A DNA stretch of 48,051 bases, filler included, from Jimgerdemannia flammicorona (GCA_003990765.1; 2 parts of 2 records of this genome joined end to end with filler, not necessarily neighbours in it), one strand, 5' to 3'. Positions 608-9,448 are shown, counted from the whole stretch's first letter. Translations and numbers: made by a program. The notes: generated by a model from the sequence alone, not told the origin.

Positions 608-2755
608 TTAGAGCACGCTGCCAAACACACGGTTGTGCCTGGCGATACTCGGGCCATGCTCTTCGTACTCGGCCTTGGTATGGCAGTAGGTATGGAAATC
701 GGCCTAGGGGGGCGTGGGAGTGAGCATTAGATTCTTGCGTGACACCAAACAACGAGGACACGAAAGGCTCGGCAAATATCGACCGGAACAGCATACTCAC
801 AATAACCGAGACCAAACTGCCGCCATACCAGACGGCGTGTCGCTGCTTCTTGTGCGAGATGACGTTCACCTCCACGTCTTTGGCCTATTGATGGTTATTA
901 TACGTAAGTTTAAAGATGGGCACCAAAAACTCAATACCACCTACGAATATCATGGAGAGTCAACAGGGACGGAACCTCCCCCCCCTCCAAAAAAAAAAAA
1001 AACCTTCCACAAACACATTTTCCCCCCCAATACCAATATTACCTTTACAGACCCGCCGCTCAGCTCCTCGCTCCTCTTCACGCGGAAATCGACAGTGCGC
1101 TTGATCTCACGCTTTAAGCGCTTATCAAAGTCCTTAAACATGGTCGAGCCGCCGGAGAGGACGATATTCTTTCAAAGCCCCCAAAGAAATGACGACATTG
1201 GTCGATGAGATTTGGTACATGCACATCACACCCAAAGGAGCCGAACTGGTCACGTGACGCGTGCCCACCTTATAAAGCCCCCGACGAGTGTCGATGGGGC
1301 TGGACTGGATGACGGTGTCGACGACCTCGGGCAGCGGGGTGAGGTAGTCGGAGCTGGCGATCTCCGGATTAAAGAAGATCTCGGGGGCGAGAAAGCGCTC
1401 GAAACCCACGTCGACTGAATAGGGCTGGGAATATTATTATTGATGGGACAAATACGTGCGTTAGGCGATAGATCATGGACAGAAAGCAGTAACCAAGGTC
1501 TAAACCTCAAAAGTAAATAAAAATAAATTCTCCCCGCCTTCCGAACCCCTCCTCAGCACCCACCTTCCCCGTCACGCCATGGGTGCTCTCAAACTTCTTA
1601 AAGTACTTCTCGCCTTCCTGGTCATACTTCTTAAATTCCTTGACGATATCCGGGCAGACGTACGAGTACTGCTCCTTGATGAGCTCGGCGACACGCAGCG
1701 AATCCTCAGGCGGGATGCCCGTCTCACCGCGCTCGCGTAGCAGCTGCTGAACGAAGTACGTGATGTCGCGGCCGGCGATCGGGACACTCTTGATCGAGCT
1801 ACCTATCACATAGCCAGAAGCCTAAGAGGGTGTGGTAGTGCGTCGGATAAATGAATTCTGTTGGGGAACTTTGATATTTCCGGGTTTCCAAGTACCCTTT
1901 TCCGCGACGCAAAACCATAATATGACACTAATACTTTTTCGCCCCGCTCGGCTCCAGTTACGAGGCCGAGGCTCATCACGCCATCGTGTGACTTTCCTCC
2001 CCTCACACCCCTCCCTCATCCGATCCTCGCAACCAACCAACACACGAAATTATAAACAATATTAACAAAACCTACCACGGGGATGACGTGCGTTACACCA
2101 TCACCGCTGTCGATGACAGTCCCTGTTAGGACCTGCTCCTCGGCAGTCCAGGTGGAGGCGAGGGCGAGGACGGCCTGGACGGCGATGTAGAGGCCCTTGA
2201 TGTTGAAGGACTCGAACATGATCTCTGCGGTTTGCTCGCGGTTTTCGGGGGAATTGAGCGGGGGTTCAGTCTTATATTGGAGAGAGAGAAAGTTGGTGAG
2301 GGATCATGGTAGCAGAGGGATCAAATATTCTGTCATGATATGCAGACATAGGCCGTTGGCGGGCACATTTCTACACTCACCAAAAGGAAAAGGTGATCCT
2401 CCGGCTCGCACCTCAGGTACTTGAAGATGGACTGCTCCCAGAACCTCTCCATGTGGTCCCAGTTGTCGATCTGGCCGTGGCGGATCGGGTAGTTGAGCGC
2501 GTAAGTCTTTGAGTTCTGTATGGCCTCATCGCCGATAAAGAAGTCAAGGTCCTCGATGCCACGCTTGGACGCGAGGTTGCTGGACAGGAAGGAGGGCTTG
2601 GTGGGCAGGGAAGGGCCACTACCACCGGAGGAAGCGTGAGTCTCGCGAGTTGCGATGGCGGTGGGAAAGACGAAGGAAGGGGTGTCGTTGCCGCCGTAGC
2701 CGATCTTTGAATAGCCTGTGCCGTTGTCGATGACGATTGGGGGAAGTCTCGACAT
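608..2755 (-). CDS. ARP3: Actin-related protein 3 (Arp2/3 complex subunit), multi-exon
   Basis: Spliced translation [20 protein letters not shown]...[11 protein letters not shown]...[29 protein letters not shown]...[84 protein letters not shown] introns lie between the blocks. Confidence 0.97.
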
Positions 2756-2934: not shown

Positions 2935-5879
2935 ATGTTATCCCTCCTGAGGATCAAACGTGCAACAGTGCGTCCCCCCCCCAATCTCCGTCTCCTCGAG
3001 CTGAAGAGGCCCATATATATCAAGGCCACGAGGACCTTTGGCGGTGGGACACCTGAGGATCCCTACCGCATGGCGGATAAAATCACCAAAATGGCGCGCA
3101 AGGACCAACTGAATGAAGCCATCAAGATGGTCCAGAAGTCACACATCAATGCTCAGTCCTCAGTCGTATGGAATCACTTGATTGCAGAGTGCGCAGCGAG
3201 TCAGAGGGCAAACTTGTCGTATAGGATGTTTACCGAGGTGGGGCTCGTGTTGATTTCGTCGGTTGATAAACGTCTTTCCCTCTCTCGGTAATAATAATCA
3301 TCCACACCGGCAACCTGACCCATCCTCCACACTAAATCTCTTATTACAATCAGATGAAACGCCGCGGCTTCAAGCCCAACGACCGCACCTATACCCTCCT
3401 CCTCAGCGCCCTAGCCGCGAACCCGTCCTCCCCTGAAGCGATCGAGCGTGCCGAGCAAATCTATGCTGGGCTCCAATCCTCCAGTACCATCCTCTCCCTC
3501 ATCCACACCAACGCCCTCATCAAGGTATTTAGTCGTGCAGACGACCTCCAATCTGTCCTGCGCGTTTACCACTCCATGCCCCGCGAAGGTGAGATGCGCC
3601 CGGATAAGTTCACCTACACCACCGTCCTGAGCGCGTGTGCGAGGACGACCGGCGACGACGGGTTCAGAGAGGGACTAAAGGTGTGGGAGGATGTCCTTGC
3701 GGCTGTGAAGAAGGATGCGGAGACGTACCGCCAGAGAGATTCCCCGTTGGGGAAGAAGGCCGAGACGGTCGAGATCGCTGTCAAGACCATGCAAAACGCC
3801 AAAACCGTCATCAGGCCCCAGCACAAACGCGCTCCGCTGGAGGTTGACTGTTTCCTCGCGACGGCCATGTTATCCGTGTGCAAGTCGGCCCGCGACCCGT
3901 TAGATGTGATGCGCGGGTTCGACGTTGTCTCAACAATCTACGGCATCCGTCCGCCTTCGATAAACCCTCCTCTCCTCGCGAATCCACCACCCATGACCTC
4001 GCCGGCGCTCGATGTGATCATCTCCCTCTGCTTCCGTACGCGACAGTACGACCTAGGGATTCAATACTTTGACCTTACACTCTCGGCCTTCCCGGACTTC
4101 GAACCCGACGTCAAGATCTTCAACTCGCTAATCTCGATCCAGATCGCCGCCAATCGGTACGCCAACGCCACGGCCACGCTCCAAACGCTGCGCACGCGCG
4201 GGCTCGTACCGGACGCTGCGACATATGCCGCGTGCCTGAGGGCGTGCGCAGAGGCCATGAGGAAGGAAAAGAACAAGCGCGAGGTCTGGGAACGCGCTGA
4301 GATGGTTCTTCGGGATCTAGAGGAAGAGAAGGCGAGGAAGCCCAAGGGAAAAAATGAGTTGGACGTGCAGATTAGGACGCTGTTGGACGTTGTGAAGTGC
4401 GCGCAGGAAGCGGCCGGGGCTGGGGTGAAGATAGAGAGGGAGATTTTGAAACGAGCATTGGTCTTTTTGGAAGAAGAGGGGTGGAACAAGAAGGTTATGA
4501 AGGTGCCGCCGGGGGAGGAAGGGAGGAAGGAACTTGTAACGGCGGTGTTGAAGGCGTATCGTGTTGCATTGGGGAGTGAGACGGATGAGGTGTTGGAGGA
4601 TAGGTTGAAAGCGGCGGAATTGATTGAAGTTAAGCTGACGGCGGCGATGGAGAAAGAGCAGACGATGGGGACAGGAGAGACAAGAAGGGATCGCGAGCGT
4701 GGGGGTGATGAGCAGGAGAGGTACCCGAGAAATAATCGCGAGGAGACGCGCGAACGTAGGAATGATGGACAGGAGGGGAAGGTTTTGAATCGGGGTCGCG
4801 AGGAGCCATATGAGGGACAGGAGGGGAGGTTTTTGAATCGGAGTCGCGAGGAGTCATATGAGAGAAGGCCTGCGTACGGTAATCGTGGCGAGGGGCGTGA
4901 GAGTCAGAGGGAGAGCAAGTGGAGTCGCGAGCGAAAGCCCGCGTACGACGATAGTCATGAGAAGAGTGGGAGTCTGAAGAGTGGGAGTCTGAGAGAGGGC
5001 GAGTGGAGTCGCGAGCGAAAGCCCACGTACGGCGATAGTGATGAGAAGAGTGTGAGTCGGAGGGAGGGCGAGTGGAGTCGCGAGCGAAAGCCCACGTACG
5101 GCGATAGTGATGAGAAGAGTGTGAGTCGGAGGGAGGGCGAGTGGAGTCGCGAGCGAAGATCCGCGTATGGCGATAGTGACGAGAAAAGTGGGAGTCGGAG
5201 AGAGGGCGAGTACAAACCCAAACCCGCGTACGTCGACCGCGATGTGCAGGACGAATTCGGCGAGGTCGGTGAGACAGTCCGCGTACTGCGCCGCTCCAGC
5301 TACGGGAGAGAAAGCGAGTACAAACCCGCGTACGTCGACCGCGATGTGCAGGACGAGTTCGGCAAGGTCGGTGAGACGGTCCGCGTGCTGCGCCGCTCCA
5401 GCAACGCCGGCCGTGATGCGCAGGAGGGATATCGTAAGGACGGCGAGGCTGACCGTGAACGCAGACCTGTGCATACCAATCAACAATCCGGGATTCGCGA
5501 CGATCAGAGTGCAAAACGATGGAATCGAGATAGTGACGTACGCGGCGGAGCTGGTCGCGATGAGCGGGGCTGGGGTGAGGAGCGCGGCGGGAAGGGTCGT
5601 GCGAAGTATGGAGCGAATGATGACGACGAAGGCGAGGCGAGGGAGTACGGGTTGTGGAATCAGAACAGCGACGATGGGTATCGGAGGGGCGCAGGCGAGC
5701 GGAGTGGGGGGTCGACGGCACGTGGAGCCAGGCATGAAAGTGGGAGGGAGAAGGAATGGGGAAGTGGAGAAGCGCGGGGGGCCGGTTCTTCTCGGGGACG
5801 TGGGTCGTTTGTCTCGACGAGGCGTTTTTCAACTGGGCCTGTGCAGATGGAGACCCAAGTTAGATTTCACTCAACTGTC
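2935..5879 (+). CDS. Mitochondrial pentatricopeptide-repeat (PPR) protein with a long R/E/G/S-rich repetitive tail; N-terminal part of a probable PPR-ProRS tandem precursor
   Basis: Exon 2935-3237, phase-0 intron 3238-3353, exon from 3354. A PPR motif spans the intron (VVWNHLIAECA...MFTE|MKRRGFKPNDRTYTLLLSALA); further PPR motifs include PDKFTYTTVLSACAR, PDVKIFNSLI and PDAATYAACLRAC. The N-terminus MLSLLRIKRATVR resembles a presequence. No stop occurs before the GTATGT donor at 5880. Confidence 0.88.
4915..5402 (+). repeat. Coding tandem repeats in the PPR tail: 69-bp (23-aa) units and two 102-bp (34-aa) units
   Basis: GAGTGGAGTCGCGAGCGAA recurs at 5001, 5070 and 5139 (REGEWSRERKPTYGDSDEKSVSR); KPAYVDRDVQDEFGxVGETVRVLRRSS starts at 5220 and 5322. 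Confidence 0.95.
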
Positions 5880-5992
5880 GTATGTATATGTTATGTGGTG
5901 TTCCTGTTTTTATTCTTTCACCGGTGGTTCATTTTTTTTTTTTTTTTTTTCACAAATTATCCTCACCGTACTCTCCTTTTCCGGCCATCCAG

Positions 5993-8372
5993 ACATCCCA
6001 ATACCGAAACCGCCTTTCCAAGATGTTTATTCCGACCACCAAGGACAGCCTGCTGGGTCCCAACGCCGTCGCGAGCCACCGGCTGATGCTGCGCGCTGGC
6101 TTCATCCGTCAGGTATCCGCCCGTACGAACTATCATCGCACCTTACGCTCCTTACCGGTGCCCTCCGTTCTCACCGTCGGCAGCGTGTCTTTCTACGTAG
6201 TCCGCGTCGGGGGTGTACAGCCTACTGCCCCTCGGGCTCAGGACACTCGATAAGCTAGAGACGATCATTGATGAGGAGATGAGGTTCATTGGTGAGTTTC
6301 TCGGGCAAAGTGGATCGGGTTTACGAACTGTTGGGAAAACAACGCGTGCTGATTTATGATGTGAGTTTTTGTGATTTAGACGCGCAGAAGCTCTCCCTAC
6401 CGGCGTTGCTCTCGGCTGAGCCTTGGAAGCAAATGGGGCGATGGGAATCCTCAGGCGGCGAGGTTGATATTGTGCCTCACATCTTGCAAAATCCTCTCCA
6501 TCGCAGCATGTTCATGACTGGATTATCATTCTCCCTCACATTCTCATTCCTTATGATAATTGCTAGCTTTTCCGTCTCAAGGATCGTAAGTCCGCCGACT
6601 TTCTCCTCGCCCCGACGCACGAGGAGGAGATCACCCAGCTGGTTGCCGGCGAGGTGACGTCCTACCGCCAGCTCCCGCTACGGCTCTACCAAATTGGTAC
6701 GTCTCTCCTCCTGCCGCCTGACCCCTTACCATTTCTGTCTCGTATACTATTTCCTTAACCCCCACTCCGGGTATTCTGAGCAGGCCGCAAATATCGCGAC
6801 GAGATGCGCCCGCGTTCGGGTCTGCTGCGCGGGCGGGAGTTCTTAATGAAGGATCTGTATACGTTCGATGCGACGGAGGAAGAGGCCACGGCCACGTACG
6901 AGGACGTCAGGGTCGCATATGCCAAAGTATTTCGAAGGATCGGGGTGCCGTTTGTGGTGGTATGTTTGGCCTAGGGGGAAAGGGGTTGGAGGTGATGTAT
7001 AAAATAGATTGAATGATAGAACAATGTATTCAACTCGTTCAAAATGCGACCTTTCGGATACAGGCTGATGCGGATACCGGAAATATTGGAGGGACGAGTT
7101 CTCATGAATATCACTTTATTTCGGAAGGTATGCAGCAAGCGGCCAGTTGTTTGTTGTATATTCAATGGAATCTTGAAAGTTTGGCTAACGGGCAGTGCAT
7201 TTATCGAACCCTGCAACATAGTCGGTGAGGACTCCCTCCTCATCTGCCCTGAATGCGGCTACACTGCCAACGAGGAACGCGCACGGGGTATCATCCCTCA
7301 CCACCACCACGCACCCTCCATCTCCAACCCCTTCGATACTTTCGCTTCCAGCCTTCTCCCCTCGCTCTCTCTCCCTCCCTCCGCTCTTACCATCCAACTC
7401 GCGTCGGCGGAACTTGTGATCAAGAATGCCAAGGAGGCAGAGACAAGCTCCGAGCGGGACGTTGTGGCCATTGTGATCGAGTCTGGGCGGACGGTGAATA
7501 TGCTCAAGCTCCGCGACGCTGTCAAGAAGCAGCTGGGTGAAAAGGCTAAAGACGGCATCAACATGGATTTACTCATGGGAATGCAAACGCTCGAGACGAT
7601 GAGAAAGCAAGAGGAGCGGTGGTCAAAGCTTTCGGTGTACGTAGACGATTCCGTGAACTCTATCATTCCTGATCCGACATCCGCACCTCCTCTCCCACAG
7701 TCTATCGAATCCCATCCGCTCGCTGTCTTCGCCGTGCACACTGACACGACCTTGCACCACGGCGACTTCCACAACGTTCAACCGGGCGACACCTGCCCGC
7801 AATGCCCCGCCCCACTGACCCTTCACCGCGCCATTGAGGTCGGTCATACCTTCCTACTAGGTACCAAATACTCAGCGGCGCTGGGCGCGACCTTCCGTCC
7901 CGCCGGTCCCGTAGCTGGGGGTGTGCTACCGATTCAGATGGGCTGCTTCGGACTGGGCGTATCGCGCATGCTGGCAGCCATAGTGGAGTCGTCAAATGAC
8001 ACACGTGGGATCGCCTGGCCCGTCTCTGTGGCACCGTTCCGCGTCGCCGTCGTGCCTGTTGATGTGAAGAATGAAGGCATGAAAGCCGTGGCAGAGAGGG
8101 TGTATGATGCGTTGGATGGGATGGGAGGTTCGTTACGGGATGAGGTCGTTATGGATGATCGGCAGGGGGCCTCGTTTGGGTTTAGGATGAAGGATGCGGA
8201 GTTGGTCGGGTATCCGTATATAGTTGTCGTGGGGAAGAGAGCGGCGGAAGGGGTGGTGGAGATACAGGAAAGGAGGAAAGGGGAAAAGAACCGGAGTTGG
8301 GAGATCGGCGTTGGGGAGGTGGGTGGGGAGGTGGGGGGATTGGTAGCGAAGTGGTTGAGCGAGCGGCATTAA
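5993..8372 (+). CDS. Mitochondrial (bacterial-type) prolyl-tRNA synthetase, 7 exons, ~604 aa (AIM10/PARS2-like)
   Basis: Exons 5993-6112, 6201-6291, 6380-6462, 6567-6696, 6784-6959, 7064-7127 and 7222-8372 sum to 1815 nt in frame. Motifs: [32 protein letters not shown], motif 2 [49 protein letters not shown], motif 3 [10 protein letters not shown], and an anticodon-binding domain (DDR...KDAELVGYP). Confidence 0.95.
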
Positions 8373-8993
8373 TTAACGAGGCAAGGGATGTGATGTGATG
8401 TGATGTATGTATTCGAAACACATAAAGGAGGCTTCACGTTTCCCATAGATAAATCTCACTCACGACAGTTTTCCACCCACAAGATTTCTCACCATGCACT
8501 ACTTACTCTCTAGCATCTATAGTTCTTTGGAAGATCCCAAACCGGATCAATCCATACGTTCATGTACGCCCGTATAATGCAAACCACACTAGTAATAGCT
8601 CATAATCGAAGGGAGCCAGATGGCAATACTACGCTGTTCAACATTGAAGCACCATGCAATTTGTTGGATTAAATGGCATTGCGGATTTCGTTTACCACAC
8701 TTTAAAATTGTGAGCTCGCTTCGGTTTTCACTGTTCTTTGCCTATTGTTCGTCTCGCAGACGTTTGAGGCTGGCAAATGTGAATATGGAGACCAGGTGAC
8801 AACAATCATGCTACTCATATTGGCTGTAGAATTGAATTAGATTTTTGGAAAAAATAAAAATAAAAATAAAAATAACAATGAAATACAATCTCTGAATTTA
8901 ATATATAATACTTGATTATATTTTTTCAGTAATATTATTCAAAACTATCAATCAGAAATAAAATAGCTAATCTATAAAACAGATTACTATTAT

Positions 8994-9448
8994 TGTAATA
9001 GTTCTAGTTTCTTTAAGAGGAAGTAGCTAAGATTGGTAATTCTGGTAGGTCTAAAGTAGCTCAAAGAGATACTTATAAGTTTAAGTATTCTTAAAGAAAT
9101 TCTGAGAGAAAATATTCTGAGCTTTATTTAAGCAGAGAACAAGAATATTTATATAGAATCTGAAAGAAAGATCTGGAAGGATCTTAGAAAAGAAGAGAAA
9201 AGCCAAGAAATAGGTTCTTAGTAAAGATGACTAATAGAATTCTACAATGTTTCAAAAGGTTCTATGACTAGCTAAGATAAGATACTTGATACTGAGAAAA
9301 GATAAGAATGTTCTAATGATGTCTTGATATCAAGAGAAGATTTCTAGATATTCAGAAGATACTGGAATATAGTAGAATATTCAAGAAAAGGCAAGAAAAG
9401 ACTAGAGAAAAGATGCAAAAAAAAAAATATAACTATGAAACTGTTATA
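8994..9448 (-). mobile_element. ~455-bp Ty3/Gypsy LTR (3' LTR, minus orientation), same family as the LTR at 13163-13628
   Basis: Reverse complement of 13163-13628. It ends ...TATTACA on the minus strand and is preceded on that strand by a polypurine tract, AAGAAGAGAGAGA (9449-9461). Confidence 0.8.

Follow-up and report, generated by a model that had tools for sequence, protein, structure and literature searches.

The locus studied here raises the question of whether a pentatricopeptide repeat (PPR) protein and a mitochondrial prolyl-tRNA synthetase (ProRS), encoded one after the other on the same strand, are the products of two neighbouring genes or of a single one. The locus lies in a 48,051-nt stretch of Jimgerdemannia flammicorona DNA (GCA_003990765.1; two parts of two records of this genome joined with filler), hereafter the window. 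A first interpretation made without any other data, the sequence-only reading, had proposed that both proteins are encoded by one in-frame coding sequence with a presequence-like segment at the junction. The analysis presented below indicates that the PPR protein and the mitochondrial ProRS are very probably fused at the level of gene and mRNA. Among the explanations considered, we lean with modest confidence towards a fused nine-exon gene whose 1547-aa product is a composite precursor cleaved by the processing peptidase of mitochondria (MPP); given the fusion, cleavage by MPP would be fairly probable.

Nine exons on the plus strand of the window encode 943 + 604 = 1547 aa, with two exons in the PPR half (943 aa), seven exons in the ProRS half (5993-8372, 604 aa) and GT..AG limits in every intron. 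The ATG at 2935 is the first one past an in-frame stop at 2902-2904, and it is found in the context AAAATGT. The sequence-only reading had described a PPR frame free of stops throughout exon 2, a phase-0 intron joining this frame to ProRS, and nine exons coding for about 1547 aa. The stop-to-stop open reading frame (ORF) at 3336..6086 (+), 916 aa in length, agrees with the first of these claims, the GT..AG intron of the second was verified, and the exon model gives exactly 1547 aa. Excision of the junction intron joins ...QMETQVRFHSTV in phase 0 to the N-terminus of ProRS. The in-frame ATG at 5847 and the stop at 6084-6086, to which attention had also been drawn, are both present; the latter is the first stop of the linking frame when left unspliced and lies inside the ProRS exon 5993-6112, so that a separate PPR message would have no natural end.

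The identity of both halves was examined through their domain content. In PPR exon 2, the Pfam models PPR_2 (8e-22; 77.5 bits, cutoff 30, three stretches) and PPR_3 (2.9e-10; 40.5 bits, cutoff 25) were matched, along with PPR_1 and PPR, and a weak match to the PPR_long (PRORP) model (1.9e-4) stayed below its cutoff. In the PDB, this part matched PPR proteins of plants and designer ones, with values reaching 4e-34. The AlphaFold model of exon 2, built on a 4-row alignment and with a mean confidence score (pLDDT) of 51.6, showed paired helices over residues 10-448 with pLDDT values mostly of 60-88. These tandem helical-repeat motifs place the protein among the P-type PPR proteins. An orthologue among the yeast factors was not established for the PPR half, since the Atlas search gave unnamed fungal PPR clusters, with an Aep2-like one at rank 16.

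Regarding the second half, tRNA-synt_2b was matched on three exons (single exons at 5.5e-06 and 1.1e-08) and HGTP_anticodon at 1.8e-13, a class II core followed by an HGTP anticodon-binding domain as in ProRS of the bacterial type. The N-terminus is collinear with bacterial ProRS (MRWSKxFIPTxKE...SHxLMxRAG; P0068 and P0173), and the last exon alone retrieved 5423 relatives at E<=0.001. Many bacterial ProRS have an INS editing domain separating motif 2 from motif 3, although a protein can belong to the family without it; its model tRNA_edit gave no match in the last ProRS exon at E<=0.01, unlike the bacterial-like protein P0134, where it was matched at 2.5e-21.

Evidence on transcription was obtained from the assembled contigs of two RNA runs of one organism, X1 and X2, which reveal neither rare isoforms nor the ends or strand of transcripts. 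The share of sampled words of the locus found in these runs was 54% for X1 and 49% for X2. Because contigs without any intron were recovered, both runs derive from spliced RNA, and the GT..AG splice sites assign the transcripts to the plus strand. All eight intron joints were present in X1. In X2 there were six joints, and the other two introns appeared as loose ends matching the neighbouring exon; both of the latter belong to the introns internal to ProRS, four of which were seen as joints. The joint of 5879 to 5993 was found in one contig of X1 (118 nt on its shorter side) and in one of X2 (73 nt), so the splicing of the junction intron, for which the sequence-only reading had pointed to transcript data, is seen in both runs. 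The X1 contig (record 2, 2228 nt) runs without gaps over 5327-5879, continues with 5993-6110 and extends onward to 8230, so that one assembled molecule contains ProRS and, in frame with it, 553 nt of the PPR tail. The region 5327-6110 is non-repetitive and was matched at >=99%. Contig depth was 25 for record 2 and 400 for record 1, the X1 contig over the PPR start, which also covers an adjacent actin-family gene; these depths are left out of any comparison of expression.

The depth in the bins 5710-5903 and 5904-6097 was that expected from the spliced contigs alone (25.3 x 105/194 = 13.7 in X1 and 17.4 x 105/194 = 9.42 in X2); therefore, neither run holds an intron-retaining contig. The signs of separate messages that had been named beforehand were thus not seen: no contig of X1 or X2 retains the junction intron, AATAAA and ATTAAA are absent from 4400-6200, and no poly(A) end was found among the listed loose ends of the contigs. 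A third run, X3, a root metatranscriptome with a share of 0.12, gave two contigs of 95-99% identity, which cover only 5449-5750 and stop short of the junction; X3 is left out of the evidence on splicing and habitat.

The PPR frame ends in a purine-rich and repetitive stretch of 1200 nt (4680-5879), which connects the folded repeats to ProRS. The linking frame is open beyond chance: it contains no stop in this region, vs 6 and 33 stops in the other two plus-strand frames, and none of 5000 first-order Markov simulations of the region was free of stops (mean of 14.9). The repeat periods given by Tandem Repeats Finder in the tail (48, 15, 84, 69, and 102) are multiples of 3 in five rows out of five. 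Indels between the window and the runs amounted to 15 nt (at 4961) and to 2+1 nt (at 4682 and 4685) within the tail, unlike the indel beyond the stop codon (at 8387), whose 10 nt are not a multiple of 3. Residues 449-842 of exon 2 had no secondary structure in the AlphaFold model, with pLDDT values of 25-38, and GC content remained coding-like (0.57-0.63) up to 5879, in contrast with the AT-rich intergenic DNA after 8400. Because of the open frame, the indels and periods in multiples of three, the predicted disorder and the amino-acid-changing nature of its variants, we conclude that the tail is a translated but disordered and weakly constrained linker. The proposed switch from an acidic tail to an acid-poor segment rich in Arg and Ser was also borne out by composition, with 23% D/E in residues 546-905 and 5% in the last 38. 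Antisense to the repeat tail there is a 409-codon open frame (4630-5859, minus strand) with a single stop over 4680-5879, which most probably results from the purine-rich composition of the repeats and is no gene.

The same arrangement was found in a second genus. A protein of Endogone sp. FLAS-F59071 (P0005, 1131 aa, 49% identical) combines PPR_2 (1e-30) and tRNA-synt_2b (1e-22) in one model with the same junction. A further Endogone-type sequence (P0006, a Logan ORF of 690 aa, 47% identical) keeps an uninterrupted frame from MKRRGF to ...YMFYSTT, after which it reads VCPVFVPI, as expected if a GTnTGn donor stood where the window has its own. The tails of the Endogone-type sequences, of about 290 aa, are only 28% identical to that of the window, with many gaps, and lead into ProRS in the same frame. 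Within Endogonales, at least the genera Jimgerdemannia and Endogone have the fusion in common. The spliced contigs of two runs, the open linking frame and the fused Endogone model together uphold the single in-frame coding sequence of the sequence-only reading.

Outside Endogonales, both proteins were encountered apart. The ProRS of Mortierella (P0002 and P0027) are stand-alone proteins with their own start Met. Among the best 150 ProRS representatives retrieved with the last exon, a query blind to the partial Endogone model, 149 are of <=735 aa, and the sole long one (the above-mentioned P0134, 1401 aa) carries AAA, DUF234 and editing domains and no PPR. The nearest PPR relatives were four metagenome loci with 25-36% identity. 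An exon boundary directly before MKRRGFKPN, corresponding to intron 1 of the window, is common to L001 and L003, the tblastn matches split at this same boundary in L002 and L003, and the exon-2 frames of L003 and L001 come to a stop after 507-520 aa. A tblastn search with ProRS gave no match in any of the four loci, whose downstream flanks measure 2.5-10 kb. A single mRNA with a single ORF thus holds two proteins that are separate elsewhere, as judged from the spliced contigs, the stand-alone Mortierella ProRS and the PPR relatives without ProRS. Orthologues that always occur as separate genes, which the sequence-only reading had named as refuting it, were not what was seen: the Endogone protein is fused with the same junction. 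Only separate genes were found outside Endogonales.

A search for long ProRS forms resulted in three matches, none of them with PPR. In Podila epigama, a 1287-aa protein (P0001) has a bZIP-containing N-terminal region of 700 aa followed by a complete mitochondrial-type ProRS beginning ...MPTPTAIEFRHRLSKTYVPTTKQ; it is probably a merged annotation, although it may be another ProRS fusion. The Mortierella protein P0002 (710 aa) has a C-terminal extension, and P0003 (1534 aa) is a ProRS whose catalytic and anticodon-binding regions are interrupted by very long insertions, acidic and of low complexity, and whose C-terminus is extended by about 400 aa.

To understand what became of the N-terminus of ProRS in the fusion, the junction was compared with the starts of unfused enzymes. 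The bacterial ProRS start MRWSKxFIPTxKE aligns with the mature N-terminus of the ProRS of the window. In stand-alone mitochondrial ProRS (P0002, P0027, P0026 and P0035), the start Met precedes RNRLS by 25-35 aa, and its counterpart in the window is GAGSSRGRGSFVSTRRF, to which it aligns. Because these stand-alone N-termini align upstream of the ATG at 5847, an ancestral ProRS presequence appears to have become internal, and on this alignment the segment 5772-5879 is read as the former ProRS presequence. The ATG at 5847 leaves 15 aa before RNRLS and only 4 before a conserved RF motif. At the junction, the Met is shifted in the other species (MQYRF in the Endogone protein P0005 and TQYMF in P0006); since its position moves between species, this ATG is not a conserved start.

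In a crude heuristic scan for 20-aa windows without D/E and with at least four R/K, 17 of 1528 qualified, and they clustered at residues 1-21, 242-263 and 908-960. The MPP motif has an R-3 form, R-x-[YFL]-[SA], and the 1547 aa contain this pattern at only two places, one of them being RRFS in the junction segment. The corresponding position reads SARHLST in P0005 and SARQFST in P0006, so that a S-[TA]-R-x-[FL]-S-T motif is kept in the three Endogonales sequences out of three; in P0005 the motif recurs as YRFYST, 14 residues after SARHLST. The presequence-like character attributed to the junction by the sequence-only reading hence gained from the ProRS N-terminus alignment and from a conserved R-3-type motif, while cleavage itself is put forward as a prediction. 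At the other end of the precursor, PPR exon 1 opens with the acid-free basic segment MLSLLRIKRATVRPPPNLRLL (no D/E and five R/K in residues 1-21), which, according to the same crude composition heuristic, is likely an N-terminal mitochondrial presequence.

On the basis of these features, the precursor would be targeted to mitochondria by the presequence of the PPR protein. During entry into the matrix, MPP would cut the retained ProRS presequence around the step from RRF to ST, and possibly also near that from VRFH to ST. This cut would set free a ProRS of normal size and a PPR protein whose long tail is disordered and acidic/basic; in the sequence-only reading, a single import event would in this way supply the two in a 1:1 ratio. 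As to the origin of such a gene, it probably involved the loss of a stop at the end of PPR and of a start in front of ProRS, and the intervening sequence would have turned into a repeat-expanded coding linker.

Several observations weigh against this composite precursor. No single record ties the PPR start to ProRS, as the X1 contigs break in the repeats at 5025-5326, and one contig is no proof of one transcript. In X2, the contig over the junction starts at 5807, within the only zone free of upstream ATGs (5757-5846), and X2 has no contig over 5733-5806; an internal transcription start and a patchy assembly fit these two facts equally. In all three Endogonales sequences, a Met is found no more than 11 residues away from the junction, at differing positions. 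The single-base differences between strains in the tail mostly change the amino acid, indicating weak constraint. Among relatives, the fused Endogone protein is a predicted and partial model, known as a protein model, and no PPR-containing protein was found among those of at least 1475 aa, which is weak evidence; a full-length fused protein is hence lacking among them. Finally, the public J. flammicorona model (P0004, 856 aa), 100% identical over the first 440 exon-2 residues, is a separate PPR protein. This model leaves the frame of the window after ...GGKGRAK and ends with TATMGIGGA, and its 3' end requires a frame-shifting intron of about 58 nt near 5606-5663. Because this intron is absent from the gapless X1 contig over 5327-5879, the 3' end is regarded as a prediction error, and the public model as truncated or mis-spliced.

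The X2 data and the in-frame Met near the junction in the three species are what would be expected if ProRS were expressed mainly from a promoter of its own in the PPR tail, with a transcription start within 5757-5846 and translation from the ATG at 5847 (context CAGATGG), the long message being a minor or unproductive read-through. The separate public PPR annotation and the net basic N-terminal segment starting at this ATG also suit such overlapping transcription. On the contrary, it would leave the PPR frame without a stop codon of its own, and the X1 junction contig reaches 520 nt upstream of the ATG, a leader (5327 to 5846) with 10 out-of-frame ATGs, 8 of which open ORFs of 174-300 codons running past it. 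Moreover, stand-alone ProRS presequences measure 25-35 aa, in P0006 the Met stands where the RF motif has its R, with about 8 residues left up to the mature domain, and the GC content stays coding-like up to the end of exon 2. We therefore consider it unlikely that ProRS is made mainly from an internal start; as far as contigs can tell, an additional ProRS-only transcript with a start in 5757-5846 may exist beside the fused message. An artefact, by which an assembly or sequencing error erased a stop or two genes were wrongly merged, could be suspected from the proneness of repeats to misassembly and from the breaks of the X1 contigs there. It is nonetheless highly improbable, given that the open frame of the window recurs in two runs whose variants are independent, in the second J. 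flammicorona record, P0004, as far as residue ~847, and in the two sequences of Endogone type, and that the junction itself is non-repetitive and closely matched.

The evidence from ORF, splicing and conservation is equally compatible with a fusion that is never cleaved, in which the PPR domain, on a disordered tether of about 400 aa, would act as an RNA-binding module of ProRS. Such a protein might place proline charging near mitochondrial RNA or the mitoribosome, or it could aid the binding of tRNA-Pro. Many aminoacyl-tRNA synthetases (aaRSs) carry appended RNA-binding domains, PPR domains bind tRNA precursors in PRORP (whose PPR_long model was matched weakly here, below cutoff), and the linker is in frame in both genera. 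This possibility is doubtful in view of the acid-free presequence-like segment and the R-3-type motif, located where stand-alone ProRS presequences are processed, and of the poor conservation of the linker between genera. In addition, the composite precursors listed in PMC8734313 all have a presequence-like site at their junction. The composite precursor cleaved by MPP remains the explanation towards which we lean, and the coordinates of its gene are collected in Table 1.

Table 1. Coordinates of the PPR-ProRS gene in the window, from the PPR start codon to the ProRS stop codon
Feature	Position	Strand	Remarks
PPR exon 1	2935..3237	+	101 aa; N-terminus matches P0004
Intron 1	3238..3353	+	116 nt, GT..AG; removed in X1 and X2 contigs
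PPR exon 2, whole	3354..5879	+	no stop
PPR exon 2, folded P-type pentatricopeptide domain	3354..4679	+	Pfam, PDB matches, AlphaFold
PPR exon 2, disordered R/E/D/G/S-rich tail/linker	4680..5771	+	tandem repeats at 4762-5406
Presequence-like segment ARGAGSSRGRGSFVSTRRFSTGPVQMETQVRFHSTV	5772..5879	+	acid-free basic windows; ProRS start-Met alignment
RRFS, candidate R-3-type MPP site	5820..5831	+	residues 924-927
In-frame ATG	5847..5849	+	context CAGATGG; ProRS start if transcribed from an internal promoter
Junction intron	5880..5992	+	113 nt, phase 0, GTATGTAT...poly-T...CCATCCAG
ProRS exon 1 = fusion exon 3	5993..6112	+	mature N-terminus aligns with bacterial start MRWSKxFIPTxKE
ProRS class II core exons	6201-6291, 6380-6462, 6567-6696, 6784-6959, 7064-7127	+	tRNA-synt_2b
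ProRS last exon	7222..8372	+	insertion region, motif 3, anticodon-binding domain; stop TAA at 8370-8372

Some observations were also made in the surroundings of the gene. An actin-family gene of the Arp-like kind (2336-2755, minus strand; Pfam Actin at 3.5e-22) is divergent from it, with its ATG about 180 bp from the PPR ATG. Record 1 of X1 (3713 nt) includes 1619 nt upstream of position 2800, runs across the actin-family gene and enters PPR, which reflects either overlapping 5' regions in unstranded contigs or a shared bidirectional promoter. Directly past the ProRS stop there is a (GTGAT/GATGT)n microsatellite at 8380-8405. One X2 contig has the deletion at 8387, and the many X2 variants within 8262-8441 suggest a second allele or strain. 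Further downstream, at 8800-9000, GC content falls to 0.19-0.33 vs 0.55-0.64 in coding parts, the intergenic DNA being very AT-rich.

Rare composite precursors have each been informative on MPP and import, and the one proposed here brings together, across an unusually long disordered repeat linker, two participants in mitochondrial gene expression for which no such pairing has been reported. The old presequence of the downstream partner is still visible, and the locus thereby catches an evolutionary route from two genes to one; it might also serve as a natural substrate for probing internal MPP cleavage. The fusion is a candidate synapomorphy for Endogonales, and its description corrects a gene model, the public PPR model of J. 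flammicorona being shortened by an unsupported intron. A full-text literature search of one library, judged from the beginnings of abstracts, found no report of a PPR-aaRS fusion. The fused Endogone model is already public as a 'hypothetical protein', and the fusion itself is, to our knowledge, undescribed. If the fusion does stay uncleaved, it would represent a new domain architecture for an aaRS. Very tentatively, the fusion may be more than a means of delivery, and we may picture the first natural PPR-aaRS protein, established throughout an order of fungi that live in symbiosis with plants, in which either the PPR part remains tethered and links the charging of tRNA-Pro to the mitoribosome or to a specific mitochondrial RNA, or the composite keeps a bacterial-type enzyme harmless in the cytosol until import.

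In yeast, the mitochondrial ProRS is the stand-alone protein Aim10. The ProRS of the window resembles the stand-alone fungal enzymes in being collinear with those of Mortierella (P0002/P0027) from RNRLSK to the C-terminus, with class II core and anticodon-binding domain and 38-39% identity over the last exon. Unlike the latter, which have their own Met and a presequence of 25-35 aa, the corresponding segment of the window is internal and preceded by 907 residues. An RNA-binding module is joined to a tRNA-handling enzyme in PRORP (PPR domain and NYN nuclease) and in the metazoan Glu-ProRS (EPRS). These would be the model for a protein that stays fused, although their catalytic partners and linkers differ and homology is limited to the PPR repeats.

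Closer parallels are found among composite precursors, about half a dozen of which are listed in PMC8734313. According to PMC8734313 and PMC5063612, MPP cuts such precursors at internal presequence-like sites; Arg5,6 and Atp25 are cleaved, and the same is predicted for Etp1, Rsm22-Cox11, SPAC22A12.08c and rice RPS14. The last four, with Rsm22-Cox11 in S. pombe, are like the fusion proposed here in being lineage-restricted mitochondrial fusions with a presequence-like junction, and unlike it in that they contain neither PPR nor an aaRS (PMC8734313). The Atp25 paper states that the translation apparatus of mitochondria is frequently involved in composite precursors, and suggests that fusion shields the cytosol from a bacterial-type factor (PMC5063612), an idea that could, by analogy, apply to the bacterial-type ProRS. 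As in S. cerevisiae Atp25 (Rsf and M domain), two complete mitochondrial precursors appear to stand in tandem in the window, both of them acting in mitochondrial gene expression, and the two MPP sites of the internal Atp25 presequence find a possible counterpart in the two R-x-[FLY]-S-T motifs placed 14 aa apart in Endogone; Atp25 differs in its protein families and has no long repeat linker (PMC5063612). Arg5,6 of S. cerevisiae and arg-6 of N. crassa have one ORF for two proteins that are separate in other lineages, as does the PPR-ProRS gene, and they have an N-terminal presequence together with an internal presequence-like segment bearing an Arg-based MPP motif at the junction (PMC8734313), to which a likely N-terminal presequence and a candidate MPP motif in the junction segment would correspond in the PPR-ProRS precursor. 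Cleavage has been demonstrated for Arg5,6, whereas for the precursor of the window we infer it (PMC8734313). Arg5,6 unites consecutive enzymes of a pathway that lie close together (PMC8734313), whereas the PPR-ProRS gene unites an RNA-binding repeat protein and an aaRS with about 400 aa of disordered repeats between them.

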